Notes: generated by a model not told the origin, from the sequence alone. Shown: positions 35,856-58,691, counted from the first letter of the stretch. The stretch is DNA of 64,000 nt from an uncultured Gammaproteobacteria bacterium (GCA_963741255.1 CAVUHM010000001.1:10675-74674); one strand, 5' to 3'. Made by a program: numbers and translations.

Positions 35856-35940
35856 CCGGTAGCCTTCCCCCCAGGTTCACGTTCCATAATGGGCGAACGC
35901 CCGCGCACCATTCAAGACGACTACAGGATCGGCGGAACCT

Positions 35941-37587: not shown

Positions 37588-39589
37588 GTCATCGGCGAGC
37601 CCGTTTGCTTGGCCGGCATCTTCACCTGTCCCGCCACGTCCTCGCCGGTCTCCTTGTCGTAGGCGCGTAGCAGCGCCACCGTTGCGCCGCTCGCATCGGT
37701 GTGGACGTCGCCTTCGCCCGCGATCACGAGCGTCTTGGTCGTCAGCGTGCCGATGAAGATCCGGCCGTAGGCGCCGAGTCGCGACACGTCGAGGCCCGCG
37801 AGTGCAGGGTTGTTGCGGATGTTGTCGGGCGTCGTGGAGTGGGCTTTCTGCCAGAGCATCTCGCCCGTATTCATGTCGTACGCCGTGATCCGGTCGTACG
37901 GCGGCTTGATCAGCGGAATGGTCCCTTGCAGGAAGGTGCTCGCGCGAGGCCCTCCCGGCCCCGGTTGCGCTCCCAATGCGCCGGGTCGCGGGCCGAGGCC
38001 ACCGGCTGGCGGCGCCGGCGGCGGGGCGGCCGCCACCGGAGCGGCGCCCGCGCGCGCAGCCGGACCCGGGTCGAACGGCCTGAGATTGGCGGGGATGTTC
38101 TGCAGCGTGAAGACCGCCGTATGCGAGTGAATGTAGAGGCGGTTCGTCTCGGGATCGAAGCTGCCGCCGGGCCAATTGGCGCCGCCGACATCGGCCGGCA
38201 GCATGAGCGTCCCGAGCGGGCCGCCCGGACGGTCGATCGCCGCCGGCGTGTACAGAGGCCCGATGTGGTACTGCGCCATGACTCTCTCGGCCTCGGCGCG
38301 CAGCGCCGGCGTGAGATCGTTCAGCACGTCCGCGGAAAAACCCTGGCGGTCGAACGGTTGCGGCCGCGTCGGAAACGGCTGCGTGGGGCTCGTCTTCTCG
38401 AACGGCGACTCCGATTGCGGCACGGGCCGTTCTTCGATGGGCCAGATCGGTTCGCCCGTTTCGCGGTTCAGCACGAACAGGAACGCCTGCTTGGTCGGCT
38501 GTGCCAGCGCCTTGATCGTGCGGCCGTCCTGCTGCATGTCGAAGAGAATCGGTGCGGCACGGCAGGTCGAAGTCCCAGAGGCCGTGATGCACCGTTTGGT
38601 AATGCCACCGGCGTTGGCCGGTGCGCACGTCGACCGCCACGAGCGATTCGCCGAACAGTCCGTCGCCGGGGCGGTTGAAGCCGTTGTAGTCGGAGGACGG
38701 CATCTCGACGGGCAGATACACGAGCCCGAGCTCCGGATCCGCGCTCATTTGCGACCAGACGCCGGTGTTGCCGTTGCGCTCCGCCGCGCCGTCTCCCCAC
38801 GTCTCGTAACCGAACTCGCCTCGAGCCGGGACGGTATGGAAGATCCAGAGGCGCTTGCCGGTCCGCACGTCGAAACCGCGCACGTTGCCGCGTACGTCCC
38901 AGGTCGAGCTCGGGGCTGCCGGCCGGGCGATGCGCGGCGCCCACCACAATGACGTTCCCGACCACGAGCGGCGTGGCGTTGAGCCCGATGTTGCCGCCGT
39001 CCGGGTCGACCTCCTGGTCGAAGTTTTCCTTCAGGTCCACGATGCCGTCGTCGCCGAACGAGTCGACGGGAATGCCCGTCTTGGCGTCGAGCGCGATCAT
39101 GCGATAGCCGGGCGTCACGTAGATGATGCGTTCGTCCGTGCCGTCCGGGCTCGACCACCACGCCACGCCGCGACCGGCTCCTTGGCGAGCGCCCGCACTG
39201 CCGCGCGCGCCTTCGTCCTCGCGGTACAGCCATTTCATTTCGCCCGTTGCGGGATCGAGCGCGACCACCGCGCGGCGCGTGCCCGCCGTCGTGTACAGGG
39301 TGTCGTTCACGTACAGCGGGGTTGCGGAATACAGCGTGTCGGGGCGCGGGCCGAGAAAATCCGTGCGCAGGCGCCACGCGATCCGCAGATCCTTGAAGTT
39401 GTCCTTGTCGATTTGGTCCAGCGACGAGTAGCGCTGGCTCGCAAGGTTGCCGCCGTAGGTCGGCCACTGCTCGGCGCGACCACTCGCTGCGGCCGGCGGT
39501 TGCGCTGTGCCGAGGGACGCGCCAAGCACGCCCCCGAGCACGAGGGCGCAGGCTGCGATCCTAAATTTACGCAAGTAGGCTCTCCCCAC
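37494..39589 (-). pseudogene. PQQ-dependent dehydrogenase (glucose/quinate-dehydrogenase-like propeller, no heme domain); frame broken twice
   Basis: Signal peptide. EQWPTYGGNLASQRYSSLDQI, ALDPATGEMKWLY, AVDVRTGQRRWHYQTVHHGLWDFD and AYDMNTGEMLWQ. Joined from ORF 38468-39589, the frame of ORF 36637-38949 (about 38945-38560) and ORF 37494-38537. Confidence 0.75.
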
Positions 39590-42151: not shown

Positions 42152-43108
42152 CTAGGTTCCGGTGGCGATCTCGCGGTGCGCCTGCATCGCGAGCAATATT
42201 CCGCCGACGATGCCCGAGTCCCCGCCGAGCTCAGGCGCACGAACGTAGCCCGCCGCGCGCTCCAAGTCTGCGAGCGGCGGCAGGTAGCCGTTCAAGTATT
42301 CGAGCATTGCCGCGCTCACGAGCGGCAAGAGCGCTCCGTTCGACATTACACCTCCGCCGAACACGATGCGCTCGACCGATTCCAGCAGCGCGATCGACGC
42401 GGCGAGCTGCCCCAAGTAGCCCGCGATAACGGAGTGTCCGAAGTGATCGGCGGGGAGCGCTTCGAGATCGCGGCCCCAGCGCGCGCGGATCGCGGGCCCG
42501 CTCGCGAACCCCTCGATGCAGCTGCGATGAAACGGGCACACCCCCGCGAAGCCGGCGTCGCGCGGATCGCGAGCCGCCGGCAGATGACCCATCTCGGCGT
42601 GCATGAGCCTGCGCCGCGTGCGGTCCTGCGGTGCCACCGCGCCGCCAATCCCGGTGCCGACTGTCACGTACGCGAGCGACCCCGCGCCGCGGCCCGCGCC
42701 GAGGCGCCACTCAGCGAGCGCAGCGGCGCCGACGTCGGTGTCGAGCGCGATAGGCGCAGCGAACGCCGAGCGCAGGGGTGCGAGTACGTCGGTGCCGGAC
42801 CAGCCCTGCTTCGGCGTGGTCAGCAATCGGCCGAAGTTGCTTGCGCCGGGCGCAAGCTCGATGGGGCCGAAGCAGCCAAAACCGAAAGCCGCGATTGGCC
42901 CGCGCGCGTTCTCGGCGGCCAAGAAGAAGTCCACGCATTCGGCGAGCGTCGCGCGAGCGTCGACGGTCGGCACCGCGACGCGATCGAGAATGCGGTCCGG
43001 CGCTTCGGCCACCGCGCAAACGAACTTCGTGCCGCCGCCTTCTATCGCGCCGAACAGCGGTTTGCGCGCATGGGTGCTCGCCATGCTGATCGTGCCGCTC
43101 ATGCTCAT
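42152..43108 (-). CDS. ROK-family sugar kinase (fructokinase-like)
   Basis: Intact 318-aa ORF. FGAIEGGGTKFVCAV, DTDVGAAALAE, VTVGTGIGGA and the zinc motif CPFHRSCIEG. Confidence 0.8.
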   Translation of the reverse strand: MSMSGTISMASTHARKPLFGAIEGGGTKFVCAVAEAPDRILDRVAVPTVDARATLAECVDFFLAAENARGPIAAFGFGCFGPIELAPGASNFGRLLTTPKQGWSGTDVLAPLRSAFAAPIALDTDVGAAALAEWRLGAGRGAGSLAYVTVGTGIGGAVAPQDRTRRRLMHAEMGHLPAARDPRDAGFAGVCPFHRSCIEGFASGPAIRARWGRDLEALPADHFGHSVIAGYLGQLAASIALLESVERIVFGGGVMSNGALLPLVSAAMLEYLNGYLPPLADLERAAGYVRAPELGGDSGIVGGILLAMQAHREIATGT

Positions 43109-43148
43109 GGCGGGCTATCGGTGCCCAACGGCCTAACGGTAGACTTCG

Positions 43149-44477
43149 GTGCAAACGATTGCAACGGAGCCTGTGAGAAGCTTCTTGGAGACTACGCCGG
43201 CGAGCAACGAGAGCAATGACGGGCGAATGATCCGCGCGCTCGTCTGCTTGATGTTTTTCACCTTCGCGATGACGACCGATGCCGTCGGCAGCGTGATTCC
43301 GGCCGTCATCGCCGAGTTTTCACTCAGCATGACGGCGGCGAGCGCGTTCCAGTACGCGACGATGGCCGGCATCGCCGCGGGGGCGTTGCTGCTCGGTTTT
43401 CTCGCCGACCGGTTCGGCCGCAAGCGCACGGTCATCGTCGGCCTCTGCCTGTACGGCGCCGCATCGCTCGTGTTCGCGGTCAGCGACCGCTTCGGCGCCT
43501 TCGTGATGCTGCTGGCAGTTTCCGGCCTCGGCATCAGCGTGTTCAAGATCGGCGCGCTCGCGCTCGTGGGCGACGTTTCCGCGTCGACGACGTCGCATAC
43601 GCGCTTCATGAACACGATCGAGGGCTTCTTCGCCGTCGGCGCCATCGTGGGCCCGGCCGTCGTCGCGACGTTGATCGCGCAGGGGCTTTCCTGGAAATGG
43701 CTGTACGTGGCGGCGGCCGCAATCTGTGTGTTGCTCGTGGCGATGGCCTCGCGGGTGCGCTATCCGGATACGACGAAGGGCGCGACGGAGCGGGCCACGC
43801 TGCGCGAGATGGTGAGCGTCCTGCGGGATCCCGTGGCGCTCGGTGTCTCGGCTCTCGTGATGCTGTACGTCGCTGTCGAGGTCGCCGTTTACGTTTGGAT
43901 GCCGACGTATCTGCTCGGTTACGGCGGCTCGTTCGCGTGGCTGCCCGCGTACGCGCTGACGCTGTTTTTCGTGCTGCGCGCCGCGGGCCGATTCCTCGGC
44001 GCATGGCTCCTGGCGCACGTGTCCTGGACGCCCGCGCTTGCGATCGTTGGCGGGGCGATCTTCCTCTGCTTTCTCGGCTCATTGTGGTTCGGTGTCGACG
44101 CTGCTGCGTGGCTACTCCCTATCTCCGGGCTCTTCATGTCCATCGTGTACCCGACACTGAACTCGAAGGGCATCAGCTGCTTTCCGAAGTCGCAGCACGG
44201 CGCGGCCGCCGGCGTGATCTTGTTCTTCACGGCAGTGGCTGCGGCGCTCGGTCCGCTCGCGATGGCAGCGATCAGCGATGCCTACGGCACGACCGAGGCC
44301 GGCTTCGTGCTGGCGACGGCATTCGCCTTCTTGCTGCTCGCGGGGCTCGCGGGCAACTGGCTGCTCGATCCGTTCGGGCGCCGGTTGCAGGCCTCCGACC
44401 GTGACGATTATGCCGGCGCACAGGCGCGAGCACGGCGCTCCCGCACGCGACGCCCGTGTCAGCACCCGATCCCGCGA
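43149..44477 (+). CDS. MFS transporter (sugar porter type); 3' end uncertain
   Basis: ORF 43149-44819 has about 12 hydrophobic segments and the GFLADRFGRKR loop motif. Its frame runs on into the next gene without a stop, so the true end (about 44400-44480) cannot be fixed. Confidence 0.8.
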
Positions 44478-44478
44478 A

Positions 44479-45964
44479 GTGAAGAACCGCGTCCAGCTGA
44501 TCGCCTACGCGGACCGCCTCGGCGGCACATTCGCGGGTTTGCGGGAGCTGCTCGCCGGGCCGCTCTCGGGGCTGTTCGGCGGCGTGCACCTTCTGCCGTT
44601 CTTCGAGCGCATCGACGGCGCAGATGCGGGATTCGATCCGATCGATCACACGCGCGTCGACGCGCGCTTGGGCACGTTGGGACGACGTCGCCGCGCTCGC
44701 GCGCGATGATCGACGTGATGGCCGACGTGATCGTGAATCACATCTCGAGCCGCTCGCCGCAGTTCCTGGACTCTGGCCGAGCGCGGCGCTCGAAGCCGCG
44801 TTCGCGGGGATGTTTCTGACGCTGGACGGCGTATTCCCGGAAGGCGCTGCCGAGCGCGACTTGCTGGCGATCTATCGGCCGCGGCCGGGCCTGCCGTTCA
44901 CGACGCTCACGCTGCGGATGGCACGCGCCGAATACTCTGGACCACGTTCACGCCCGAGCAGATCGACATCGACGTCACGCATCCGCGCGGCATCGAATAC
45001 CTCGAGGAGATCCTACGGACGTTCGGCGCGCACGGCATCAAGATGATCCGGCTCGACGCGGTCGGCTACGCGATCAAGAACGCCGGGCACGAGCTGCTTC
45101 ATGATGCCCGAGACCTTCGAGTTCATCGGCGAGTTGGCCGCTCGCGCGCGCCGCCACGGCCTCGAGGTGCTCGTCGAGGTGCATTCGCACTACGAGCAGC
45201 AGATCGAGATCGCGCGGCACGTGGATTGGGTGTACGACTTCGCGTTGCCGCCGCTCGTGCTGCACGCTTTCTCGCGAGGCACGGCACGCGCTCTGAAGCG
45301 CTGGATCGCGATCCGCCCGCGCAACGCGCTCACCGTGCTCGACACGCACGACGGCATCGGCGTGATCGACATCGCGGCCGAGCACGGTGGAACCGGGCGG
45401 CCCGGGCTCGTTGCAGACGACGAGCTCGACCGTCTCGTCGAAGACATTCACGCGAACAGCCGTGGCGAAAGTGCGCGCGCCACGGGCGCGGCTGCGTCGA
45501 ATCTCGATCTCTACCAGGTGAACTGCACGTTCTACGACGCGCTTGGCCGAGACGATCGCAAATACCTGCTCGCCCGCGCCATCCAGTTCTTCTTGCCCGG
45601 AGTCCCGCAGGTGTACTACGTCGGCTTGCTGGCCGGCACGAACGACATGGCGCTGCTCGCCCGAACGGGCGTCGGTCGCGACATCAACCGGCATTACTAC
45701 ACGCGCGCCGAGATCGACGAGGCGCTGGCCCGGCCGTGCGTGCAGCGACTGTTCGATCTGATTCGCCTGCGCAACGAGCATGCCGCCTTCGGCGGCACGT
45801 TCGAGATCGGCGACTCGCCGGATGACATGCTCGATCTGACGTGGCGTCGAGGCGAGGACGTCGCGCGCCTCACGGTGAATCGTCGCGACCTGCGAGCATC
45901 GTCTCGAATACTCGAGCGCCGGGCGAGTTCAGCGGTTCGAGCTGGGCGGCACGCCTGCAGGTAG
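44479..45964 (+). pseudogene. GH13 sucrose-phosphorylase-like glycoside phosphorylase; frame broken at least 4 times
   Basis: Strong run of sucrose-phosphorylase blocks: KNRVQLIAYADRLGG, HLLPFF...DGADAGFDPIDHT, IVNHIS, IYRPRPGLPFT, IRLDAVGYA, VEVHS, YDFALPPL, LDTHDGIGVID, NLDLYQVNCTFY, FLPGVPQVYYVG and GRDINRHYY. They are spread over ORFs 44278-44709, 43149-44819, 44624-45046, 45043-45825 and 45101-45964. Confidence 0.75.
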
Positions 45965-46038
45965 CGCCGAGCGGCGCAGCGCGCGAGCCGCGTCCATCGG
46001 AGAGAGTCTTGGGTAAGAGGAAGGCGCGCAACAGCAAG

Positions 46039-47137
46039 ATGGCCGAGGTCGCGCGGCGCGCCGGCGTGTCGCTTTCGACCGTGTCCCGCGCGCTCGCTGG
46101 CAGCCCGCTGATCTCGGAAGGTACGCGCAAACTGGTGCGCAGCGTGGCCGCGCGTCTCGACTATCGCGTCGACGCGGCCGGCAGCAGCCTGCGGACGGGG
46201 CTCACGCGCACGGCCGGTGTCGTGATTCCGCTCACGCACGCGGAAACGCAGCATCTTTCGGACCCGTTCTTTCTCGAAATACTCGGCGCGATCGCGGACG
46301 AGCTTGCGGCGCGCGGCTACAACATGCTGCTCGCAAAGGTCACGCACGACCCGACGGAGTGGATCGCGAGCTCGATCCGCTCGCGGCGCGCCGACGGCGT
46401 CATCGTGATCGGACAGAGCCTGCATCATGGCGCGTTGAACGCGCTCGCCGACGCGGATGTGCCGCTCGTCGTCTGGGGCGCGCAGCTTCCCGATCAGCGT
46501 TACGCTGTCGGTCGGCTCGGACAACGAGGAGGGCGGCTACTCGGCGACGCAGCATCTGCTCGAGCAGGGTTGTCGCGACATCGCGTTTCTCGGCGATGCC
46601 GCCGTTCCCGAAGTGGCCGCGCGTCTTTCAGGTTATGCCCGCGCTCTGCGGGAGGCTGGCCGGCCTCGGGAAGCGCGTTTGGAGCTCTGCGTGCGGTTCG
46701 GCAGCGATCGCGACACCGCGCATCGGGCCGTCTCGTCGTTGCTCGACGCCGACGTTGCGTTCGACGGCGTCGTCGCGTGCTCGGACCTGTTTGCAATGAG
46801 CGCGGTGCAGGCGCTCGTCGAGCGCGGACGGAGAGTGCCGGCCGACTGCGCCGTCGTCGGCTACGACGACATCCCGTTCGCTTCGCTGACGACGCCACCG
46901 CTGACGACGGTGCGACAGAACTGCCGCGAAGGCGCCAAGCAGCTCGTCGATAAGCTCATGCGGGCGATCAACCGCGAACGACCCTCGTCAGCCGTGCTTC
47001 CGACCGAGATCGTCGTGCGCGCGTCGAGTCAGCGCGAGCGCTACCGAAAGCTGCCGTCGATTTCGGGGAAGCGAGCGTCCGGCTCGGCGCGCTCGCGTCA
47101 CGGCCGGCGTAACGACCCTGTCGGTGGTCAAGGCTGA
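46039..47137 (+). pseudogene. LacI-family transcriptional regulator, one frame break near 46507-46516
   Basis: HTH MAEVARRAGVSLSTVSRAL in the frame of ORF 45841-46953. Sugar-binding domain in ORF 46457-47137 (VGSDNEEGGY...VVGYDDIPFA...LTTVRQ). The break sits at gtcGGtcggc. Confidence 0.8.
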
Positions 47138-47150
47138 TTGCCGCCCCTAA

Positions 47151-47167
47151 TGTTATGCGCTATAACA
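47151..47167. promoter_or_regulatory. AT-rich inverted repeat TGTTAT-N5-ATAACA overlapping a TATAAC -10-like hexamer, between LacI and the DUF1592 copy-2 gene
   Basis: Read directly: tgttatgcgctataaca. It is the only AT-rich patch in the 71-nt spacer, 42 nt upstream of ATG 47209, and GGGGGAG lies before the ATG. Its function is not demonstrated. Confidence 0.25.
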
Positions 47168-47208
47168 AAGCGTAACGGCACGAGCATGTTGGGGGAGCGC
47201 TAGCGTCT

Positions 47209-49510
47209 ATGTCGCCGCGGGCAATACTGCTCGTCAGCATAGGGCTGCCCGCGGTCACGCTCGCCGCTGTGGCCGCTTGGAAGCTGCGCGATCGCGAGCG
47301 AGTCGAACCGCAAGCGGTGCTGGAGCGTTATTGCATCGAGTGTCACAACTCAGCGGAACGCGCGGGAGATCTCGCGCTCGATCGGCTGTCGCTCGACCTC
47401 GTAGAGCCGGACGTGCATGCGTGGGAGCAGGTGGTGCGGAAGGTTCGGACGGGATTCATGCCGCCGGTCGGGGAGCCGCGGTCCGCCGCGCGTTGTGCTC
47501 GACGGTTTCGCTGCGGCCCTCGAACAGCGGCTCGACGCCACGGCGCAGGCGGCACCGCGCGCGGGATTCAAGACCGTCTCGCGCTTGAATCGCACCGAGT
47601 ACACGAACGCGATCCGAGACCTGCTCGCCTACGACGCAAGCTCCGTCGCGGCGACGCTCCCGGCCGACGATGCGATTCAGGGTTTCGACAACGTTGCGGC
47701 AGCGCTCACCGTTTCACCTACGCTGATTGAGCGCTACGTCGCCGCGGCGGCGAAGATCAGCCGCGCAGCGGTCGGGGACCGCACCCACGCCCGTACACAA
47801 GTCAGTTACGCGGCGCCGGGCGGGACGCAGGCAAGCCACGTGGACGGCCTGCCGCTCGGTACCCGCGGCGGATTCAAGCTCGTGCACGACTTTCCGCTCG
47901 ACGCAACCTACGAGATCCGCATCCGATCCCGGGGCTTTGGACCTCTGGCGGGTCAACGCGTGTGCCCATTGCCGCGAATCGACGTCACGCTGGACGGCGC
48001 GCCGCTCGCCGTCGTGAACCCCGACTCGTTTCGGCAGCGCATCGGCGCCGGGCCGCATGCATTGACCGTTGCGTTGCTCGACGAGCATCGGTGCGAGGGT
48101 GTCAACGAGTTGTTCGGCGTGTACGCGCCGGCCGGGGGCGTGGACGCCGTGGAGATACACGGGCCCTTCGAGCCCGAAGGACTCGGCGACACGCCGAGCC
48201 GGCGCGCCATCTTCGTTTGCCGCCCGTCGTCTCCCGAGCAGGAGACTGCATGCGCAAGCGAGATCCTCACGCGACTTGCGACACGCGGTTATCGCCAGGC
48301 CGTGCGCGAGGATGACCTTGGCCTAGCCACGCTGATGAGCTTCTACCGGCAAGGCCGGCAAGACGGTGATTTCGAGAGCGGCATCGAGCGGGCGCTCGCG
48401 CGCCTCCTCGTCGATCCGCGATTCCTGTATCGGCTCGAGGCAGAGCCGGAGGACATCGCGCCGGGCACGACCTATGCGTTGACCGACGTCGAGCTTGCAT
48501 CGCGTCTGTCGTTCTTCCTGTGGAGCAGCATCCCCGACGACGAGCTGCTGGCCGTCGCCGCGGCCGGTGAGCTGGGCGAGAAGGACACGCTCGAGCAGCA
48601 GGTTCGGCGCATGCTCGCCGACCCGCGCTCGATTGCGCTCGTCGAGAATTTCGCCGGCCAGTGGCTGAAGCTGCGCGAGCTCGACGATGCGCTGCCGCAA
48701 GACGCCGGGTTCGACGCCCGGCTCCGCGACTCCTTCCGGCGGGAGACCGAGCTGCTGTTCGAGCACGTCGCTCCGCGACGACCTGCCGCGTGCTCGATTT
48801 GCTTGCCGCGCGTTACACGTTTCTCGACGAGCGCCTCGCGCGCCACTACGGTATCGACGGCGTGATCGGCAGCTATTTCCGGCGCGTGGAATTGCCCGAG
48901 GACAGCCCCCGCGGCGGACTGCTTGGGGCAGGGCAGCATCCTGACGGCCACGTCGGTCGCGAACCGCACGTCGCCGGTCGTCCGCGGCGCGTGGATCGTC
49001 GAGAACCTGCTCGGCGCCGAGGTGCCGCCCCCGCCGCCCGGTGTCGAAGCGGATCTCTCCGGCGCGCGCTCGCCGGCCGAAGCGAAGACGTTGCGCCAGC
49101 GCATGGAGGCGCACCGCACGAATACCGTCTGCGCAGCCTGTCACCAGCTCATCGACCCGTTCGGCTTCGCGCTCGAGACCGTTCGATCTCGTCGGCCGCT
49201 GGCGGGACAGCGATGCCGGCGAGCCGATCGATGCCACTGCGACGCTCGTCGACGGCACGGCCCTCGACGGGCCGGCCTCGCTGCGCCGCGCGCTGTTCGA
49301 GCCGCTCCGACGCGTTCGTCACGGCGTTCACGGAGCGGCTCATGACCTATGCGCTCGGGCGCATCCTCGACGCGCACGACAGGCCGGCCGTGCGCCGCAT
49401 CGTCGCGACCGCGGCCGCCGACGAGCATCGTTTTTCCGCGCATCGTCTCGGCATCGTCATGAGCCCGCAATTTCGCAGTGCAGACCAAGCGCACGACGGA
49501 GGAACCATGA
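47209..49510 (+). pseudogene. DUF1592/DUF1588-type large heme-motif protein (copy 2); frame broken at least 5 times
   Basis: N-terminal CIECHN and C-terminal CAACHQLIDPFGFALE. VELASRLSFFLWSSIPDDELL, NFAGQWLKLREL and NRTSPVVRGAW. Pieces lie in ORFs 47209-47730, 47417-48865, 48661-50208, 48923-49345 and 49041-51275. Confidence 0.75.
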
Positions 49511-50421
49511 GCCACCGCGATTTCACCCGAACTTCGCGCCGCACGCTGCTCGCAGCCGGCGCCGGGCTTGCCGGCCGGTTGCGCTGCGCGGACCGCGCGC
49601 AGCGACCGCGCAGCCGCGTCCCGATGCCGCGGTGCCGAGCGGAACCGACGGCCGCCGCGATCGCGGCCGCGTTGCCGCTCGACACGCTCGGGCTCGAGCA
49701 TATCGGCACCGTCGTGCCCGATGTGACGCGCGCCGCGCGCTTCTACTCGCGCGTGTTCAATCCCGTGCTCTACAAGGAGCGGGACGAGCCGTTGCGCTAC
49801 TACGTGACGCTCGACCCCGGCTACATCGCGCTCGGCAGCCGCGCCAACGAGACGCGCGCGTTCATCGACCACGACTGTGCACTGCTGCGCAGCTACGACC
49901 GCGCCGCGATGGCGCGGCGGCTCGAAGCCGAAGGCCTGCCGGCCGGACGCTTCGGCGTCATTCCGGATCCCGACGGCCTCGGCCTTCAGTTGCTCGGCGC
50001 GCCGGGCGGTCTCGCCGGCTCGACGGTAGCCGGCGGGCCGTCTCGTCGAGGGCGAGCCGCTCGTGCGGCCGCGAGGGCTCGCCTACGTCGTGCGGTACGT
50101 GGCCGACCTCGAGCGCTCGGCGGCGTTCTACCGGAAAATGTTCGGCACGGAGCTGCCCGACGACGGCGGCGGTCTCGCTTTCTCGCGCCGCACATACGCG
50201 CTGGATAGTGCGGACGGCACCGACGAACGAAGCGCCGCGCATCGACCGCGTCGGCGTCAACGTCGCGCGCTTCGATGCGGCAGCCGTCGCACGTGAGCTC
50301 GAGGCACTCGGCGCACGCGTCGATCTCGACTGCGCCGGAGCGCTTGCACTTCCGCTGCCCGGACGGCCTCGGCGTCGAGCTCGTGCCCGTCGATCCGGCG
50401 CGCATCTGGGGGCTCGCATGA
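49507..50421 (+). pseudogene. two-domain VOC (glyoxalase/dioxygenase-fold) protein with TAT signal; frame broken about 3 times
   Basis: GGAGGA lies before ATG 49507. N-terminus TSRRTLLAAGAGLAG. LEHIGTVVPDVTRAARFYSRVFNP and YVVRYVADLERSAAFYRKMFG are VOC beta-alpha-beta-beta-beta starts. The end GVELVPVDPARIWGLA overlaps the next start (ATGA at about 50418-50421). Confidence 0.6.
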
Positions 50422-51758
50422 GCGCGAGCGCTGCGGACGGGCCGGCACTGTCGCGGCGCGACGTTGCTGCGCGGCGCCGGCGCGACGATCGCGTTGCCGT
50501 TCTTGAGCTCGATGCTGCCGGCGGGACGCGCGTCGGCGGCGACGCCGCGCGTCGCGCTTTGCCTGCATCTACATCCCGCACGGCGCCGTCATGCGGCAGT
50601 GGACGCCGGCGACGGACGGCGCAGGCGTTCGAGCTCGCCGCCGATTCTGCGCTCGCTCGAGCCGTTCCGCGATCGGCTCAACGTCGTCAGCGATCTCGAC
50701 GCTGCCGCTCGCCTACGGCGAGGACGCCTCGGCGGGCGCAAACCACACGCGCTCGTCGGCTGTCTGGATCACGTGCACGCAGCCCGAGCACGGGCGCGAC
50801 ACCACGGCTCGGCATCTCCGCTCGATCAAGTGGCCGCGCAAGCCTTCGGCCAGGACACGCCGCTGCCGTCGCTGGAGTTGTCGCTCGAGGAGGGCGGCTT
50901 GAGCGGTGGCTCGGGTCTGTCGGGCGCCTACCGCAATACGATCGCGTGGCGCACGCCGACGGCTCCGCTGCCGATGGAGGTGAATCCGCAAGTCGTGTTC
51001 GAGCGACTGTTCGGCGACGGCGCGACGGTCGAGCGAGCGCGCGCAGCGGCGCGAGGCGAGCCGCGAGCCTGCTCGACTCGGTGCTCGAGGATGCGGCCAG
51101 CACTCGACGCGCACGCTGCCCGGCCGACGACCGCGCGCGTCTCGAACGCCACCTCGAGGACGTCCGCGAAGTCGAGCGGCGTATCGAGCTCGCGGGCAGC
51201 AAGGTGCGCGCGATCTCGACGTGCCGGCGCAGCCCGCAGGCGTGCCCGACGATTTCGAGCAGCATGCGAAGCTGATGTTCGACTTGCTGGCGCTCGCGTG
51301 GGCCGCCGATCTCACGCGCGTCGGCACGCTCATGATCGCGAAGGAAGTCAGCAACGCCGTTTATCCCGCGAGCGGCATCAACGATCCGTTCCACAATCTG
51401 TCGCACCACTCGGAGGTGCCGGCCAACATCGAGCGCTACGCGCGCTTGAACGCGTATCACACGAGCACGACGCTCGCGTATTTCCTCGGCAAGCTGCGCG
51501 ACACGCCCGACGGCGACGGCACGCTGCTCGACCATTCGCTCGTGCTCTACGGCAGCGGCATGAGCAACTCGAACCAGCACGACCACGAGCCGTTGCCGAC
51601 GATCGTTGCGGGCGGCGCATCGGGCGCGCTGATCGGGTGGGCGTCACGTCCGCGCCGGCGCCGGCACGCCGATGGCGAATCTGCTGGTCGCGCTGCTGCA
51701 GAAGCTCGGCGTCGACGCCGAGCGTTTCGGCGACAGCACGGGAGTCGTGTCGATATGA
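50418..51758 (+). pseudogene. DUF1552 family protein (copy 2); frame broken at least 6 times
   Basis: TLLRGAGATIALPFLSSMLP, IYIPHGAV, ILRSLEPFRDRLNVVSDL, PSLELSLEE, NPQVVFERLFGD, LLDSVLEDA, DLTRVGTLMIAKEVSN, SHHSE and LVLYGSGMSNSNQHDH are colinear with the intact copy at 11948-13276. They are scattered over ORFs 49041-51275, 50464-51789, 50591-50902 and 51221-52267. Confidence 0.7.
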
Positions 51759-53334
51759 GGCGCGCGTGGGCCGGGCTGTGCCTGCCTAGCATTGCGCGGA
51801 TTTTGCCGCGGGGCAGAGCGCGATTACGCGACGCTCGCGGACGCAGCCATGAACCGCGACGCGGGCGCGGTGCGTGCTCTGCTCGCCGCCGGTGCGGACG
51901 TGAACGCGCTCGGCACGTACGGCACACCCGCGCTGCATTGGCTCGTCCGCGTCGAGGATCCGCGCGAGCGCGGGCGCTGCTGCTCGACGCCGGCGCGGAC
52001 CCGAACCTCCGGAGCGCACAGGGCGTTGCGCCGCTGCACCTCGCGCTCGCGAATCGCGATCGTCGGGACGGTGGGCCTGCTGTCGCCGCCGGAGCGGACG
52101 CGACGCTCGCCGATCATGCCGGCGAGACTCCGCTGATGCTCGCTGCACGTGCACGGCGACGCCACGATCGTCGCGCGGCTGCTCGCGGCGGGTGCGCCCG
52201 TCGACACGCGCGAGGCCGAGTACGATCAGACGGCGCTCATGGTCGCCGCTCGCGAGAGCAACGTTGAGGTCGTGCGAATGCTGGTCGCGGCAGGCGCCGA
52301 CGTGAATGCTCGAAACGCGGGCCGGGGCCGTGCCTGCGTTTCCGTAAGCCGGCCGACAACGCGGGCTCGAAAGGAATCGGCATCGTTCGCGGTGGCTGGC
52401 CCGAGCGCGGCATGCGCGCGCCTATTCCAGGCGCGAAGACGCCGTTGCTGTACGCGACCCGCCGCGGCGACCTCGCGATCACGAAGACGCTCGTCGAAGC
52501 AGGTGCGGACGCTCGAGCTCGCCGACGCGGATGGCATCACGCCACTGCTAAACGCCATTTTGAACGCGAGCATCGCGGCGGCCCGTGGGGCACCGAAGGG
52601 GGCTGCGCATTTTGCCATCGCGCACTATCTGATCGAGCGCGGCGCCAACGTGAACACAGTCGATTGGTACGGCGAGACGCCGCTGTGGGCTGCTGTCGAC
52701 GTCCGTAATCTCGACGTCAACGGCCCGGGGCGCGACAACGGCATCGATCGAGGGGCGGCGCTCGACGCTCATCGAAACTCTGCTCGCGGCGGGTGCCGAT
52801 CCGAACGCACGCACGATCGAGTATCCGCCGGAGCGGCGGTTCCTGACGCCGCTCGGCTCGCTGTCCTGGGTCGACTTCACCGGGCAGACGCCGTTCCTTC
52901 GCGCTGCGCTCGCTGGCGACGTGACAGTCATGCGTCTCACGCTCGCGCACGGCGCCGATCCCGCGATCGGCACATTCGCGGGCACAACTCCACTGATGGC
53001 GGCTGCCGGCATCAACTGGGTATTCAATCAGACGTTCGACGAAGGGCCGGAAGCGCTGCTCGAAGCCGTGGCGCTGTGTTTCGAGCTTGGGGCACGACGT
53101 CAACGCGACGAACACGATGGGCCTTACTGCGATTCACGGGGCCGCAAACCGCGGCTCGAACGACATCATCGAGTTCCTCGCGGCGCCGCGGCGCCGATGC
53201 TCGACACACCGGACCCGCACGGGCGTACACCGTCGGTTTGGGCCGAAGGCGTCTTCCTCGCGACGCACCCTCCGCAGCGCAAACCCGAGACGATCGAGTT
53301 GCTCGCGCGCCTGCTACGGACGGCACCGCCATGA
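51755..53334 (+). pseudogene. ankyrin-repeat protein (copy 2); frame broken many times
   Basis: Its start overlaps the DUF1552 stop (ATGA at about 51755-51758). Ankyrin repeats are found in ORFs 51792-52136, 51221-52267, 52149-53807, 52412-52708, 53087-53419 and 52921-53334 (for example GTPALHWL, GVAPLHLA, GETPLMLAA, KTPLLYATRRGDLAITKTLVEAGAD, GITPLLNA, GETPLWAA, GTTPLMAAAG, GLTAIHGAANRG). Confidence 0.65.
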
Positions 53335-53423
53335 AGCCGACGAGGACCCGATCGGCAATATTCCGATCATTCCGGTCATCGGTGCTGCGAAGGGCACTTC
53401 CTTTCGCTATATTGAATAACACT

Positions 53424-53807
53424 ATGACGTTGCGTTCGGGTTTTTTTGGCGTACTCGTGCTCGTGGCGGGGGCCGCCTACGCGCACCACTCGGCGCCGGT
53501 CTTCTACAACGTCAATGAGCGTACGACCGTTAGCGGCACGGTCACCGAGTTTCGTTTCAGCAACCCGCACGCGATCCTCAAGCTCGAGGTAGTGGGCGCG
53601 GACGGCGAGAAGCAGCAGTGGACGGCCGAGACCACATCGCCGTCGATCTTGCGCCGGCGCGGCTGGAGTCAGACGAGCTTCAAGCCTGGCGACAAGGTGA
53701 AGCTCGAAGGGATGCCTTCGCTCGATGGCACGTATTTGATCCGCATCACGCGCGCGTTCCACGAGGACGGAACTGAAATCGGCCTGCCGCCGGGCACCAA
53801 CAACTGA
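53424..53807 (+). CDS. small secreted protein with predicted mature N-terminus HHS (DUF6152-like, copy 3)
   Basis: In the frame of ORF 52149-53807, from MTLRSGFFGVLVLVAGAAYA|HHSAPVFYN. NPH motif (FSNPHAILKLEV), W.AE..SP....RGW and PGDKV. A TATATT -10-like hexamer lies about 15 nt upstream. Confidence 0.75.
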   Translation: MTLRSGFFGVLVLVAGAAYAHHSAPVFYNVNERTTVSGTVTEFRFSNPHAILKLEVVGADGEKQQWTAETTSPSILRRRGWSQTSFKPGDKVKLEGMPSLDGTYLIRITRAFHEDGTEIGLPPGTNN

Positions 53808-53808
53808 T

Positions 53809-54600
53809 ATGCGGGCGCTAAACCTTCTGACCGCGCTCGCCGGGTGCGTTGCAGGTGTCGGCGCAACGATGGGGAACCTTCATGCCCAGTCGCCGCAAGG
53901 TCACGGCATCGCGGGCTTCTGGTCCATGACTCCGGGGCCGACGCCGCCTCGGCGGGCTGCGACGCCGGCGGAAGCCGAGCTGATCGCGCAGTTCCGCGAA
54001 GGCCACTTGCTGCTCGCCGACGCCGGCGCGACCGAGTTTCCGCCCGGGGACTACGGCGGACTGAGCGTGCACGCGAGCTTGCGCGAAGCAGCGAAAAGCT
54101 ATGATCCCGAAAACCAGACGGACGTGTCGTTGACCTGCCGGCCGCCGGGCGTGATCTACTCGATGCAGGGCCCGTTCCCGCTCGAGATCTTCGAAGGCCG
54201 CGACCTCATCGTCATCAAGCTCGAGTACTTCGATCTCGTGCGCATCATCTTCATGAACGAAACAGAGCACCCCGACGATTGGCCGCACTCGCAGACCGGC
54301 CATTCGATCGGCCGCTGGGAAGGAGACACGCTGATAGTCGACACGACCCGGCTGATGCCCGGCACGCTGTTCAACAACGGGATCGACTATACGCAAGACG
54401 TGCGCCTTCTCGAACGGTTCCGCCTCGCCGACGCCAACACGCTGATCGTCACGCAACAGTTCGAGGATCCCGGCTCCTTCGAAGGGACGGCCGCGCGAAT
54501 CATGTCATTTCGGCGCGGCGATGATCACGTTTACCCCTACGAGTGCGATCCAACGTACGGTCTCGCCATCGAGTCGCGCCAAGGTCCGGACTCGGAGTAG
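53809..54600 (+). CDS. GDTLV-motif periplasmic protein (unassigned family)
   Basis: Intact 263-aa ORF starting 1 nt after the HHS gene stop. It has a signal peptide and motifs LTCRPPGV, GRWEGDTLIVDTTR, LLERF and C-terminal YPYECDP. Confidence 0.8.
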   Translation: MRALNLLTALAGCVAGVGATMGNLHAQSPQGHGIAGFWSMTPGPTPPRRAATPAEAELIAQFREGHLLLADAGATEFPPGDYGGLSVHASLREAAKSYDPENQTDVSLTCRPPGVIYSMQGPFPLEIFEGRDLIVIKLEYFDLVRIIFMNETEHPDDWPHSQTGHSIGRWEGDTLIVDTTRLMPGTLFNNGIDYTQDVRLLERFRLADANTLIVTQQFEDPGSFEGTAARIMSFRRGDDHVYPYECDPTYGLAIESRQGPDSE

Positions 54601-54678
54601 GGTCTGTCGCGGGCTCGTCATGATCGATGCGGGGGAGTCACGGTGCGAACACAACCTTTCGGACAAATGGGAGAGACG

Positions 54679-56235
54679 ATGACGACGTTGCGACTCGTTG
54701 TAGCGACCGCCCTCACGATTGCGGCGCTCGCTGCGCATGCGTCGGCGCAGGCGCAGACCCAGGCGCAGGAGCGGGCGTGCGCTACGCTCGCCGGCCGTAC
54801 CGGCGGCCCCGAGGATCTGACGATCGACGAGGCGAGGTTCTATGCGAATCGCACGATAGCGGCTCGGCCCGGCGCCGAGATGACGCTGCCGCCGCACTGT
54901 CACGTCGCCGGCAGCTTCGAGCGCCGAACAGGCGTCGACGGTAAGCCGTACGCGATCGGTTTCGCGATCAACATGCCGGCCGAGTGGAACGGGCGGTTCA
55001 TGTTTCAGGGCGGCGGGGGATTGAACGGCGCGATCCGCGAGCCGGTTGGGTCACAAGTGGCCGGAGAGCGGACCGCGCTCGAGCGCGGCTTCGCGGTCGT
55101 CGCGACGGACAGCGGCCATCAGGGCAGCGGCTTCGACGGCAGCTTCATGGCCGATCAGCAGGCGTTGTTGAATTTCCAATTTCAAGCGAATGCGAAGACG
55201 ACCGAAGTCGCGCTTCCGATCGTCGAGGCGTACTACGGCGAGGCACCACATCACAGCTACTTTGTCGGATGCTCGACCGGCGGACGTGAAGGCATGATCA
55301 TGGCGCAGCGGTATCCAGATCTCTACGACGGCATCGTTTCCGGAGCTCCTGCGATGCGAACGACGATGAGCAATCTCGCGCTGCGCTGGATCAGCAATCA
55401 GTACGTCAAGGCGAAGGTCGAGACGCCGCGCGATCCGTTCACGCCGGAGGAGGAGCGGCTCGTCATGGGTGCGCTCATGCAGCGCTGCGACGCGCTCGAC
55501 GGTCAGGCGGACGGGCTCATCTTCAATCGCACGTCATGCGACTTCGACCCGACCGAGCTCGCATGCTCGGCCTCGGAGCGAGCTCCGCAGTGCCTCGCCC
55601 CCAACAAGGCGGAGGCGCTTGCGCGAGCCATGGCGGGACCCGTGAATGCAGCCGGCCTCCCGGTCTACGTCGGGTATCCGTACGACTCCGGCATCGACGA
55701 CTCCGGCGGCTTGCCGGGCCTGCTGCTCGCCGGCGGCAGCCCGCCGATCGGGCCAAACGGCGCCGACCTGCAGGATCAGAACGTCGACGCGGAATTCCTC
55801 GCTGCGATCGCTGCGAACGAAGCGCTGGGCAGCACGGCGTCGTACTACAACCTGACTTCGTTCGTCGGCCACGGCGGCAAGCAGATCTTTTATCACGGCG
55901 AAGCGGACCCGTGGTTTTCCGCGAACGACACCGTCCGCTATTTCGAGCAGATCGGCGAGGCGAACCGAGCGGTGCAGACGGTCGACGAGTATGGACGTTT
56001 GTATCTCGTCCCCGGCATGTCGCATTGCCAGGGCGGCGAGCTGACACCGGACTCGTTCGATTTGGTGACGCCGCTCGTCGAGTGGGTGGAGAAGGGCGAC
56101 GGGCCCGGCGCCGTGACGGCGACGGGCAGATCGATGCAGGGGCGGAGTCGGCCGCTATGCCCGTATCCGAGTTACGCGCACTACAAGAGCGGCGACGCGG
56201 CCGACGCTCGCAACTACGAATGCAGGACCCCTTGA
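54679..56235 (+). CDS. tannase/feruloyl esterase family serine hydrolase (copy 2), secreted
   Basis: ORF 54643-56235, with the likely start at MTTLRLVVATALTIAALAAHASA. It has FQGGGGLNG and GCSTGGREG and is colinear with the gene at 1392-2996. Confidence 0.85.
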   Translation: MTTLRLVVATALTIAALAAHASAQAQTQAQERACATLAGRTGGPEDLTIDEARFYANRTIAARPGAEMTLPPHCHVAGSFERRTGVDGKPYAIGFAINMPAEWNGRFMFQGGGGLNGAIREPVGSQVAGERTALERGFAVVATDSGHQGSGFDGSFMADQQALLNFQFQANAKTTEVALPIVEAYYGEAPHHSYFVGCSTGGREGMIMAQRYPDLYDGIVSGAPAMRTTMSNLALRWISNQYVKAKVETPRDPFTPEEERLVMGALMQRCDALDGQADGLIFNRTSCDFDPTELACSASERAPQCLAPNKAEALARAMAGPVNAAGLPVYVGYPYDSGIDDSGGLPGLLLAGGSPPIGPNGADLQDQNVDAEFLAAIAANEALGSTASYYNLTSFVGHGGKQIFYHGEADPWFSANDTVRYFEQIGEANRAVQTVDEYGRLYLVPGMSHCQGGELTPDSFDLVTPLVEWVEKGDGPGAVTATGRSMQGRSRPLCPYPSYAHYKSGDAADARNYECRTP

Positions 56236-56294
56236 GCAAGCCCGCCTAGCACGCGTGCTGGTGGTGCTCGAGACAATCGTCTAGCGCATTCGCC

Positions 56295-57578
56295 TTAGCG
56301 GGAGAATATCGTCGTGTCGATGGCGCTCGCCATGGCGGCGTTGCCGGCGTCGTTCGGATGGATGTGATCGCCGCTGTCGAGCTCCGGTGCGAGCCGCGCC
56401 GGTTGCCGAGGGTCGCGTGTCGCTGAGTCGAAATCGGCCACCGCATCGAGCTTGCCGGTCGTCCGGATCCATGCGTTGACGGCCTGACGCATCGCCTCCG
56501 TCTCGGCGTTGTGCAGCCATAGTCCGCCCATCGGCATCAGCGTGCCGCCCATGACCTTGATGCCGCGCGCATGCGCACGATCGACGATCTGCTCGAGGGT
56601 TTCGATGACCTCGTCGGCCGTCGTGCTCTGCGTGTCAGGCACGGCTGGAAGCGATGACCAAGTAATGTCGTTGATGCCTTCGAACAGCACGAGCCACCGC
56701 ACGCCGGCGCGCGCGAGCACGTCGCGATCGAAACGGCCGAGCGCGCTCGCGCCGATGACGTCGCGCCGCACGCGGTTGCCGGAGATCCCGGCGTTGATCA
56801 CCGCCCAGTGGCGGGTCGCGGGGTTGGCCTGAAGCTTCGCTGCGAGCAGCGACGGCCACGCTCGATGAGTATCGGGTGTCGTGGTGACCCCGTCGGTAAT
56901 CGAATCGCCCAGCACTACGATGGCACCCGCGTCGGCGGAAGCGAGCACCTCGACGCCGGCCAGCCAAAAATACGTGAGATTGGTCCGCGCGTTTGGCAGC
57001 GCTGTGGCGGCAGCGGCGTTGCCGGCAACGACGTAGGTCGTGTTGAGTGCGAACTCATGGGTCGTCACGCCCGGCGTTTCGTTCGGGAGATACACGGAGA
57101 CCGCGAGCTCCGTGAGCGGCGGCACCGCGAGTTCGACGGGATCGCTGACCACGAGCGTGCCGGGTTGAACGGAAAACGACGCTTTGCCGCCGAACGTTAC
57201 CGCACGATCAGTTTCCGTGACGATCGCCGATCCGCGCTCGCGTAGCGCCACGTGCACGGCGCCGACGTTTACCTCGCTCTGGCCGAGCGCATTCGACAGC
57301 GTCAGGCGCAAACGATCGCCGCCGACGCTCGTCCGCACGATCATGCGAACGGTTTCGTCATGGAACGACGACGGGTAGGGAGGCAGCAGCGGGGGCGGGG
57401 GCGGCTCGTTCGGCTCGCGCGGTGGCGGCACGACCCAAACCGGCAGCGTCTCGGCGGCGAGCTGCTGAGCCGTACCCCAAGTGCTGACCCAGTGCGGGTT
57501 TCGGCCAGTGTCCGGCGTTTGCGCCGCGCAAACACAACAGCACAGCAGGAGAGCGAGCGCCGAGAAACGCTTGTACAT
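56295..57578 (-). CDS. SGNH/GDSL-family hydrolase with N-terminal beta-rich domain, secreted
   Basis: ORF 56295-58274 trimmed to MYKRFSALALLLCCCVCAAQ. SGNH blocks VVLGDSITDG, NAGISGN, FEGINDI and GDHIHPN. Confidence 0.85.
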   Translation of the reverse strand: MYKRFSALALLLCCCVCAAQTPDTGRNPHWVSTWGTAQQLAAETLPVWVVPPPREPNEPPPPPLLPPYPSSFHDETVRMIVRTSVGGDRLRLTLSNALGQSEVNVGAVHVALRERGSAIVTETDRAVTFGGKASFSVQPGTLVVSDPVELAVPPLTELAVSVYLPNETPGVTTHEFALNTTYVVAGNAAAATALPNARTNLTYFWLAGVEVLASADAGAIVVLGDSITDGVTTTPDTHRAWPSLLAAKLQANPATRHWAVINAGISGNRVRRDVIGASALGRFDRDVLARAGVRWLVLFEGINDITWSSLPAVPDTQSTTADEVIETLEQIVDRAHARGIKVMGGTLMPMGGLWLHNAETEAMRQAVNAWIRTTGKLDAVADFDSATRDPRQPARLAPELDSGDHIHPNDAGNAAMASAIDTTIFSR

Positions 57579-57592
57579 CCGAGTTGCCGCCT

Positions 57593-58691
57593 TCAGCTCT
57601 TGCCGAGGCGCTCGGCGAAGAAACGGACGATCACGTCGTAGCACTCGCGCGATTCCGGCACGTCGGGGTTGTAGAAGAAACCGTGGAACATGCCCTCCCA
57701 AACGTGCAGATCGGCATCGACGCCGTGCTTCACGAGCTGAGCGTGCGTGTAGACGGCGTTGCTGAGCTCGAAGGAGCGCGTGCCCGTCACGATCAGAGTG
57801 GGAGGGAACATTGCGAGCACCTCGGGCGAGCTCGCCGGCGCGACGAGCGGATCGTTGGGCTCGGTGTCGGCGAAGTAATCCATGGGAACCGGATTGTCGG
57901 CGGCGCTCGGCGGCACGACGCGACCTTCCCCGAGCGGCAGCGTCGTGTAGCTCGCGTCGCCGCCGAAGGCCCCGCCGTCCGACACTCGCGGCGCCCGCGC
58001 ACAGGAGGCCGATGGCACCGGGTCGCGGCAGCCCGTGGCGCTGGAACCAGGCGACGGACATCGCCGTGAGCATGCCGCCGGCCGAGCAGCCGTAGATGCC
58101 GATGTTCTCGGCGCGATAGCTCTTCAGCAAGCTCGCGGTACGCCGCGGCGACGTCCTCGCTGGCCGCGGGATGGCGGTGCTCGGGGCCTTGGCGGTAGTC
58201 GAGGCGCGACCACTTTGATGCGCCCGAGCGCCGCGATCGGCATCGACTCGAGCTCCGCGCATGCTGGCCAGCACTCGCGAAAGCCGCCGCCGTGCAGATC
58301 GATGAGCACGCGGTCGCGATTTTCGGCCGCGATGCCGCCTCGCGGCGTGTAGACGTAGGCGTGCACGCCGCCGATCGTCGTCTCTTCGCGGTCGACCGGA
58401 AACAGCTCGCGCTGCCGCGCGATGTAACCCGCGATAAGCCGCGGCACGCCGTTTTCTTGGACGAGCATCTCAGGCCGCTGCAGATTGCGGAGGTGCTCCG
58501 CTAGATACGCTTTGCCTTCGGGGCTCAGAAATCCGGACACCGGCACCGTCTGTTCCGGCACGTGGACGGTGCCGTCGGGTTCGATTGCGACCTCGCGTGG
58601 TCGCGGCCGGTTGCGGAAGTGCCGCTGCGCCCAACAGCATCGCGAGGAAGCCGATCGCCATCGAACGCCTGAACATCGAGGGCCGTTGCAT
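57593..58691 (-). pseudogene. HSL-type (Abhydrolase_3) esterase/lipase, exported; frame broken at least 3 times
   Basis: Signal peptide in ORF 58470-58751. Oxyanion motif DLHGGGF in ORF 58124-58891. Nucleophile elbow IGIYGCSAGG in the upper part of ORF 56295-58274. C-terminal HVWEGMFHGF in ORF 57593-58018. Confidence 0.7.

Follow-up and report, generated by a model that had tools for sequence, protein, structure and literature searches.

An exported four-gene operon with PSCyt/PSD, VOC, DUF1552 and ankyrin proteins beside a DUF6152-GDTLV gene pair in an uncultured gammaproteobacterium

Whether six adjoining genes belong to one system or to two is the question raised by this locus. The genes lie on the plus strand at 47209-54600 of a 64,000-nucleotide stretch of DNA from an uncultured Gammaproteobacteria bacterium; this whole stretch is referred to as the window. 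In order, they encode a two-haem protein with PSCyt and PSD domains (the PSD protein), a VOC protein of the glyoxalase/dioxygenase superfamily, a DUF1552 protein, an ankyrin-repeat protein, a DUF6152 protein and a protein named after its GDTLV motif. An earlier, sequence-only reading had placed these six families here, and Pfam recovered all of them except GDTLV, which has no Pfam match. That reading also proposed that the genes form one translationally coupled operon. The proposal holds for PSD-VOC-DUF1552-ankyrin; the DUF6152 and GDTLV genes fall outside it, beyond an 89-bp spacer and with separate orthologue contexts. With a probability of roughly 70%, we favor the idea that two units abut only in this lineage, namely a four-gene exported operon (unit 1, 47209-53334) and an independent DUF6152-GDTLV module (unit 2). 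In what follows, "cassette" means the PSD, DUF1552 and ankyrin genes and "module" means DUF6152/GDTLV genes.

From the gene arrangement we conclude that unit 1 is one translationally coupled operon, because its three junctions are ATGA overlaps and its gene order is kept in five orthologous loci. The overlaps at VOC/DUF1552 (50418) and DUF1552/ankyrin (51755) had been noticed before and were found again; the one at PSD/VOC (49507) is added here. After repair of frameshifts (see below), all four unit-1 proteins pass the Pfam cut-offs. The repaired PSD protein has the domain order PSCyt1-PSD3-PSD5-PSD4-PSCyt3-PSD2 with every domain above its cut-off (PSD4 148 bits, PSCyt3 118, PSD3 81, PSD2 78, PSD5 50 and PSCyt1 25). 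Its N-terminus is hydrophobic and could be a membrane anchor or a signal, and haem attachment is predicted from two haem c motifs, CIECH and CAACH. In the raw open reading frame (ORF) pieces, Pfam recognized PSCyt1, PSD3, PSD5, PSD4, PSD2, DUF1552/HXXSHH, ankyrin and DUF6152. The two CxxCH motifs, the twin-arginine translocation (TAT) signal of DUF1552 (SRRTLLRG) and the signal peptide of the ankyrin protein, all of which had been called earlier, were read from the repaired proteins; signal peptides and twin-arginine signals throughout were read directly from the sequences rather than with a predictor. The VOC protein has the twin-arginine signal SRRTLL and a C-terminal module that matches PF00903 (41.6 bits against a cut-off of 20.6), with a sub-threshold N-terminal module. 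Its matches to specific enzyme models were all far below the cut-offs, and a PDB sequence search with it returned only weak superfamily matches. NCBIfam gave no usable name for any of these proteins, and PDB sequence searches with DUF1552, GDTLV, DUF6152 and PSD profiles or proteins gave nothing meaningful.

In the raw ORF pieces, the first four genes lose their reading frames at many points, and overlapping spurious ORFs are abundant in the window, which has a G+C content of about 67%. We placed the frameshifts by alignment to an orthologous locus, L089; a GC3 frame plot was too noisy for that. L089 is a farmland-soil contig, the closest relative found, and is collinear with the window over 43210-53315 at 87.5% nucleotide identity. 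The alignment has more than 60 small indels, nearly all of them single-base insertions in the window and outside homopolymers. They sum to about +36 bases over 6.1 kb and hit every gene of the operon, whereas the genes at 53.4-56.2 kb are intact with zero such insertions. A net gain of this size next to intact genes, which makes the defect local, is what could be expected if this copy were a decaying pseudogene operon with real frameshifts. That explanation is highly improbable. Bacterial gene decay usually shows a deletion bias, and indels that are almost all 1-nt insertions are the opposite of this. When the insertions were removed with L089 as guide, four ORFs with zero stop codons in about 2,000 codons were obtained. 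The repaired proteins are 87-93% identical to those of L089 (90.6% for the ankyrin protein), and substitutions relative to L089 fall mainly at third codon positions (176 of 254 in the PSD gene). The same error type occurs in other genes of the window, including copy 1 of the cassette (described below) and the major facilitator superfamily (MFS)/amylase/LacI genes, and the stretch in question has the highest G+C content of the window. An intact 764-aa PSD orthologue (P0241) from another metagenome is 97% identical over a 464-aa query fragment. Because the repaired ORFs are free of stops, third-position substitutions dominate and this intact orthologue exists, we conclude from these comparisons that the frameshifts are sequence errors and not gene decay. 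Type-B proteins of another locus, L037, were dropped as repair guides, being about 37% identical to copy 2. The insertions span 43200-53334 and are densest at 47200-53300, where G+C reaches 70-71%; the pattern resembles assembly error in a long-read contig.

To see how widely the operon's components keep company, we scanned one genome per species with a DUF1552 alignment as seed, and searched six-frame ORFs of the resulting 80 loci with hidden Markov models (HMMs) built here. Their hosts are soil Gammaproteobacteria (Candidatus Rariloculus and Rariloculaceae among them), Vicinamibacterales, Terriglobia, other Acidobacteriota, Rhodospirillales and one Acidimicrobiia. In all 69 loci with sufficient upstream DNA, the gene directly before PSD encodes an ankyrin protein of about 540 aa. 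Median distances between HMM envelopes are 14 nt for ankyrin-PSD and 8 nt for PSD-DUF1552 (65 loci). The expectation that ankyrin genes accompany this pair in other genomes was thus borne out in 69 of 69 assessable DUF1552-seeded loci. In seven such loci, nucleotide similarity to the window is limited to 8024-13276, which is exactly the three cassette genes of copy 1, and the similarity scores of the ankyrin, PSD and DUF1552 proteins co-vary across loci (Spearman 0.49-0.82). Because it is directly upstream of PSD in every one of the 69 loci, the ankyrin gene is, as judged from this comparison, a core and strongly conserved part of the cassette. The sequence-only reading had regarded the ankyrin link as undescribed, and, within the library searched, none of the papers that name these PSCyt/PSD/DUF1552 domains mentions ankyrin. 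What appears to be new here is the conserved ankyrin (and VOC) component of a known, unexplained PSCyt/PSD-DUF1552 pair.

Seven loci have the alternative order PSD-DUF1552-ankyrin, as a rule at a distance of a few kb from a cassette that begins with ankyrin. At L028, L037, L041, L042, L043, L045, L060 and L091, both orders often lie within 5-8 kb of each other and are sometimes divergent. DUF1552 proteins of this subfamily (L009-L088) are 64-80% identical across Gammaproteobacteria, Acidobacteriota, Rhodospirillales and an Acidimicrobiia metagenome-assembled genome. This level of identity across phyla suggests that the entire cassette has moved horizontally or is under unusually tight constraint.

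The four-gene order of copy 2, PSD-VOC-DUF1552-ankyrin, is kept in L089, L090, L091 and two JGI contigs at 73-91% identity. Four of these (L089, L091 and the JGI contigs) have 4-nt overlaps at most junctions with intact gene calls; L090 retains the order with gene calls broken by frameshifts. Similarity of the window to L090 and L091 at the nucleotide level is limited to 47286-53315. Two of the five loci, or three if one JGI contig is counted, have a TonB-dependent receptor gene directly upstream of the operon (L090 8440-9948 and L091 6838-9993), ending 8-50 nt before PSD, and several have a second, divergent cassette adjoining the first. A MarR regulator gene follows the ankyrin gene in L091 and the two JGI contigs, and a DUF1501 gene lies at the edge of L090.

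By comparison with related loci, the DUF6152-GDTLV pair is a unit independent of the four-gene operon, because orthologues of each half occur without the other and synteny breaks at the junction between them. Within the pair the genes are tight: as had been reported for the small His-His-Ser protein gene, now assigned to DUF6152, the stop (53807) is 1 nt before the GDTLV start (53809). Orthologues of the pair with 76-89% identity occur in seven other contexts (L001, L003, L004, L005, L092 and two JGI contigs), always as DUF6152 and then GDTLV, the two genes either overlapping or 1 nt apart. In the DNA surveyed around these seven, neither PSD nor DUF1552 nor ankyrin genes were found. From the other side, the gene after ankyrin in the five operons of the copy-2 type is a beta-lactamase-family or MarR gene and never directly DUF6152. 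The window's nucleotide similarity stops at 53313-53315 for L089, L090 and L091 (at 53315 for L089) and begins at 53429 for L092. Past 53315, L089 continues with a beta-lactamase-family gene and then a cupin-like 152-aa gene; L092 has both of these genes, 88% identical to the L089 versions, upstream of DUF6152-GDTLV-tannase. L089 and L092 share these two genes and the window has neither at this junction; on the simplest reading, a deletion of about 1.9 kb in the window's lineage removed the DNA that once separated ankyrin from DUF6152. The cupin-like gene lies before the DUF6152-GDTLV pair in L001 (9088-9546), L003 (9097-9561) and L092 (1479-1937), and after the ankyrin and beta-lactamase-family genes in L089 (11810-12268).

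The two units also occur apart on a wider scale. Among the 80 cassette loci, 42 have no module within 10 kb, and the 49 modules found in 1,064 kb of flank are spread at a density that is nearly flat to 10 kb from the cassette. In 80 metagenome loci seeded with GDTLV, DUF6152 is adjacent in about 46% of complete GDTLV clusters, and PSD or DUF1552 is present at only three loci, so the expected neighborhood link did not extend to the GDTLV side. Unit-2 modules are very common in the soil bacteria concerned and are scattered among genes for exported esterases, tannases, pyrroloquinoline quinone (PQQ) dehydrogenases and the like. Upstream of the pair in L004 (7120-9467) and L003 (4155-6493) are genes for a 520-aa protein with two CxxCH motifs and weak CCP_MauG/RoxA-like matches and for a 260-aa protein with no Pfam match.

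It could be argued that PSD, VOC, DUF1552, ankyrin, DUF6152 and GDTLV are one operon or obligatory system that was duplicated in this genome. The same families do lie side by side twice in the window, about ten other loci carry a module no farther than 400 bp past the end of DUF1552, most of these modules in the same orientation, and the gap at this junction is only 89 bp, where an ATG at 53331, in the DUF6152 frame, overlaps the stop codon of the ankyrin gene. This reading is nevertheless unlikely and already largely refuted by the comparative data. Each half has orthologues without the other, and the break in synteny falls exactly at the junction. In copy 1, the halves are split by a 533-bp gap with a PIN remnant, and a third module in the window stands alone. 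More than half of the cassette loci (42 of 80) lack a module, the cassette turns up in only 3 of 80 GDTLV-seeded loci, and modules beside orthologous cassettes are not mutually orthologous. We also rejected the longer DUF6152 start at 53331: the resulting 31-residue extension is rich in Arg and Ser, is encoded by AT-richer DNA and has no counterpart in the orthologues. A scan of 46.9-56.4 kb with promoter and terminator consensus sequences found fewer sites than in shuffled sequence and was uninformative on transcription units.

Some results weigh against complete independence of the two units, and the in-frame ATG is one of these. DUF6152/GDTLV genes lie within 10 kb of 38 of the 80 cassettes, the first kb on either side holds 12 modules compared with 6.7 expected from a uniform spread, and a DUF6152 gene occurs 0.8-6 kb downstream in four of the five copy-2-type operons. 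Next to orthologous copy-1 cassettes, where the DUF1552 proteins are 75-81% identical, no module exceeds 47% identity with that of the window's copy 1. The juxtapositions thus arose repeatedly with different paralogues. This would fit a very high copy number of modules and could also reflect a loose functional attraction. A rough estimate from two conditional frequencies gives about nine modules per cassette; therefore, local enrichment of modules near cassettes is possibly 2- to 5-fold, a rough range that depends on genome-wide counts.

Such an attraction is the core of a second alternative, in which the units are transcribed separately and are functionally partnered: DUF6152 would be a histidine-brace copper protein, the PSD cytochrome its reductase, and GDTLV would deliver a hydrophobic substrate. 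The invariant mature N-terminal His-His of DUF6152, together with a third invariant His, is consistent with this, as are the recurrence of different DUF6152 paralogues near cassettes in several lineages and the approximately 2-fold excess of immediate adjacency over a uniform spread. There is also a precedent in Cellvibrio japonicus Cbp2D, which has DUF1587 (PSD3) and c-type cytochrome domains and whose X183 domain was characterized as an electron donor to the copper of a lytic polysaccharide monooxygenase (LPMO) (PMC8981238), and a close Cellvibrio homologue was named a DUF1592 protein (PMC6004670). However, the majority of modules lie at a distance from every cassette, module density around cassettes is flat, and with modules outnumbering cassettes by roughly 9:1 (a rough figure) most could not depend on a cassette cytochrome. 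We consider this partnership quite unlikely. More speculative still, and in our view a long shot, is the fuller proposal that DUF6152 is a new periplasmic copper family with an N-terminal histidine brace that acts with a calycin partner on hydrophobic or aromatic substrates and draws its electrons from the cassettes, as the LPMO does from Cbp2D. If the cassettes did supply electrons to a copper-containing DUF6152, this would be the first function for the "Planctomycete-specific" cytochrome families.

Motifs and predicted folds bear on what the individual proteins might do. In DUF6152, an AxA-type cleavage site directly precedes the invariant His-His in 19 of 19 aligned sequences, and an invariant NPH follows about 27 residues later (19/19). 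The mature N-terminal His-His is probably a metal site, which we offer as a lead. Our literature search found no paper on DUF6152 or Rariloculus. GDTLV proteins share a GxW near the start, a Cys pair and a GxSxGRWxGDTLV motif; 609 homologues were collected, and 13,898 representatives of 50%-identity clusters match at E <= 1e-3, some of them tandem fusions. The GDTLV model (predicted local distance difference test [pLDDT] 75, predicted template modeling [pTM] score 0.74) has an antiparallel barrel at residues 125-237, and its best Foldseek matches are tardigrade SAHS, CRABP and CRBP (5xn9, E 3.6e-4, template modeling [TM] score about 0.55-0.56, target-normalized). The model suggests, with moderate support, a fatty-acid-binding-protein-like (calycin) barrel; a TM score of about 0.55 makes the match a moderate one and counts against a firmer assignment. 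For DUF1552, an AlphaFold2 model from 32 sequences was poor (pLDDT 58). Nearly all of the 50 Foldseek matches listed for it belong to the alkaline-phosphatase superfamily (sulfatases, phosphonate monoester hydrolases, YejM/PbgA-type domains, ENPP enzymes and alkaline phosphatases). These matches, the TAT signal and a conserved His cluster (HxxSHH, NAHD) weakly suggest a metal-dependent core of the alkaline-phosphatase/sulfatase superfamily. The low pLDDT and the values of the matches themselves (E about 1e-3, TM about 0.4) argue against placing much weight on it.

As a working model, the products of unit 1, all of which carry export features, would form one periplasmic complex. The membrane-anchored two-haem PSD protein would pass electrons to or from the metal centers of DUF1552 and, in copy 2, also of the VOC protein, which would be a TAT-exported two-module metalloenzyme. 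By analogy with catalase-associated ankyrin proteins, the Sec-exported ankyrin protein may be an assembly, stabilizing or haem-handling partner. Unit 2 would be an accessory pair with its own start after the 89-bp spacer, made up of an N-terminal-histidine metal-binding protein and a ligand-binding barrel. The TonB-dependent receptors upstream of the operon in relatives suggest that a substrate is imported across the outer membrane.

The closest known arrangement is in Planctomycetes and Verrucomicrobia, where PSCyt3/PSD proteins (DUF1587-DUF1595-DUF1592-DUF1588-DUF1585) are paired with DUF1552; the Pfam domain set and the adjacency are the same as here. In freshwater Verrucomicrobia, the adjacency of a PSCyt3-type protein with a functionally unassigned partner was described as conserved and unexplained (PMC5615132). 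The cassettes described here differ in their hosts, which are soil Gammaproteobacteria (Rariloculaceae-like) and Acidobacteriota, in always having a third gene, for an exported ankyrin protein, and, in one subfamily, a fourth, for a TAT-exported VOC protein, and in the absence of a carbohydrate-binding module. DUF1552 is directly downstream of PSD in copy 1; in copy 2 the VOC gene lies between them, as in the five orthologous loci. A second arrangement, PSCyt2/DUF1549-DUF1553 with DUF1501, also places a cytochrome-domain protein beside a TAT-signal protein of sulfatase-like appearance. Its Pfam families differ from those of the cassette, and we know of no ankyrin partner for it. Cbp2D is the nearest studied relative of the window's PSD protein, being likewise exported and multidomain with DUF1587 and single-CxxCH c-type cytochrome domains. 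Unlike the PSD protein, it has CBM2, YceI-like and FN3 domains, and a DUF1552 or ankyrin partner is unreported for it.

For the ankyrin protein, the nearest parallel is with catalases. The ankyrin proteins that partner catalases are much smaller. KatB-AnkB of Pseudomonas aeruginosa, KatA-Cj1386 and the Leptospira KatE operon all combine an exported ankyrin protein with a periplasmic haem enzyme, as the operon here does with a predicted two-haem protein. Whereas those operons pair ankyrin with catalase, here an ankyrin protein of about 520-545 aa would partner PSCyt/PSD-DUF1552. Ankyrin proteins of the periplasm whose genes accompany a catalase gene interact with the enzyme and promote its activity or its supply with haem (PMC10294975). 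As to unit 2, GDTLV would resemble calycins (fatty-acid/retinoid-binding proteins and lipocalins) in that the C-terminal 120 residues of its model form a predicted antiparallel barrel, and lipocalins start with a conserved GxW, as the GDTLV family does. It differs in being twice the size, in its conserved Cys pair and usual DUF6152 pairing, and in having no sequence match to solved structures. DUF6152 would resemble histidine-brace proteins (LPMOs, CopC and PmoB) in that cleavage of the signal peptide leaves His at the mature N-terminus, with another invariant His farther on. Its own features are His-His at positions 1-2 and the NPH motif, with copper binding putative.

In Planctomycetes and Verrucomicrobia, few gene families of unassigned function have expanded as much as the PSCyt/PSD-DUF1552 pairs. 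Outside that superphylum, a widespread subfamily takes the form of a compact three- or four-gene cassette that always includes an exported ankyrin protein and in some cases a VOC protein exported by TAT, and this gives co-expression, pull-down and modeling work a fixed group of proteins to start from. Separating out the second unit sets apart DUF6152 and a no-Pfam barrel protein family of about 13,900 cluster representatives, and in DUF6152 the invariant His-His at the mature N-terminus gives a lead on metal binding that can be tested directly.

Table 1. Features of the two units, of copy 1 and of the third module in the window.
Feature	Coordinates	Strand	Basis and remarks
PSCyt/PSD two-haem protein, copy 2	47209-49510	+	Pfam, raw pieces and repaired; 764 aa after repair
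TAT-signal two-module VOC protein	49507-50421	+	302 aa after repair; ATGA overlap with PSD
DUF1552 (HXXSHH), copy 2	50418-51758	+	PF07586, 299 bits; 442 aa after repair; ATGA overlap on both sides
Exported ankyrin-repeat protein, copy 2	51755-53334	+	Ank_2, 156 bits; about 520 aa after repair; stop TGA 53332-53334
AT-richer spacer, 89 bp	53335-53423		Synteny breakpoint between operon and DUF6152 pair
DUF6152, copy 2	53424-53807	+	PF19649, 89 bits; 127 aa; signal peptide ends AYA, mature protein starts His-His-Ser
GDTLV protein, copy 2	53809-54600	+	263 aa; signal peptide; no Pfam or NCBIfam model
Exported ankyrin protein, copy 1	7910-9501	+	Pfam; one frameshift near 8690; 64-66% identity to L007 ankyrin protein
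PSCyt/PSD two-haem protein, copy 1	9501-11944	+	Pfam; frameshifts near 9870 and 10370; 63-80% identity to L007 PSD protein
DUF1552, copy 1	11948-13276	+	PF07586, 271 bits; intact, 442 aa; twin-arginine signal RRTFLRG
PIN (VapC)-like remnant	13383-13691	+	PF01850, E 0.0057, below Pfam cut-off
DUF6152, copy 1	13810-14259	+	PF19649, 98 bits
Two tandem GDTLV genes, copy 1	14300-16007 (14300-15088, about 15159-16007)	+	tblastn and HMM matches
Third module: DUF6152 (21607-22020) and two GDTLV units (frameshifted or fused)	20089-22020	-	HMM, tblastn

The claim that the same set occurs twice in the window needs qualification. Both copies contain the shared families (Table 1), but copy 1 has the order ankyrin-PSD-DUF1552, lacks VOC, has a 533-bp gap before DUF6152 and carries two GDTLV genes. 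The copies share 42% amino-acid identity over the C-terminal part of PSD, in agreement with the earlier view that they are diverged paralogues, and old ones by this measure. Copy 1 is also tightly packed within the cassette: the ankyrin stop TAA overlaps the PSD ATG (TAATG), and DUF1552, which has homologues up to 96% identical, follows PSD after 3 nt. The pieces of its PSD protein match PSD3, PSD5, PSD4, PSCyt3 and PSD2, with PSCyt1 just under the cut-off, and contain CVSCH and CAVCH. Ank_2 scores over both copies range from 135 to 156 bits. The PIN-like remnant sits in the 533-bp gap between DUF1552 and DUF6152, which suggests that the gap is a rearrangement junction.

The third module has no cytochrome, DUF1552 or ankyrin gene nearby; its neighbors are MR/MLE enolase, short-chain dehydrogenase and EthD genes. 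It is followed co-directionally by the enolase (18779-20026) and the short-chain dehydrogenase (18082-18771), and its first GDTLV has a lipobox-like MAAC|S. Elsewhere on the plus strand, a GDTLV-like fragment (5557-5880) lies beside a gene of the metallo-beta-lactamase fold. An ORF with no Pfam match just upstream of the copy-1 ankyrin gene (6934-7548, plus strand) has a GxW start and a DDSTLKIETD motif, and could encode a distant member of the barrel family.

Directly upstream of the copy-2 operon, at 42152-47137, are genes for a ROK kinase (minus strand), an MFS transporter, a protein of the glycoside hydrolase family 13 (GH13) alpha-amylase type and a LacI regulator. The block is syntenic in L089 and is probably a separate sugar-utilization unit. 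Three other parts of the window (1395-5082, 23635-38537 and 54643-58274) are dense in genes for exported catabolic enzymes. These include two tannase/feruloyl esterases, a carboxylesterase, three PQQ dehydrogenase-cytochrome c fusions and a molybdopterin oxidoreductase, along with a lactonase, a TAT-signal EthD protein, two cyclase-family genes and a GDSL lipase.

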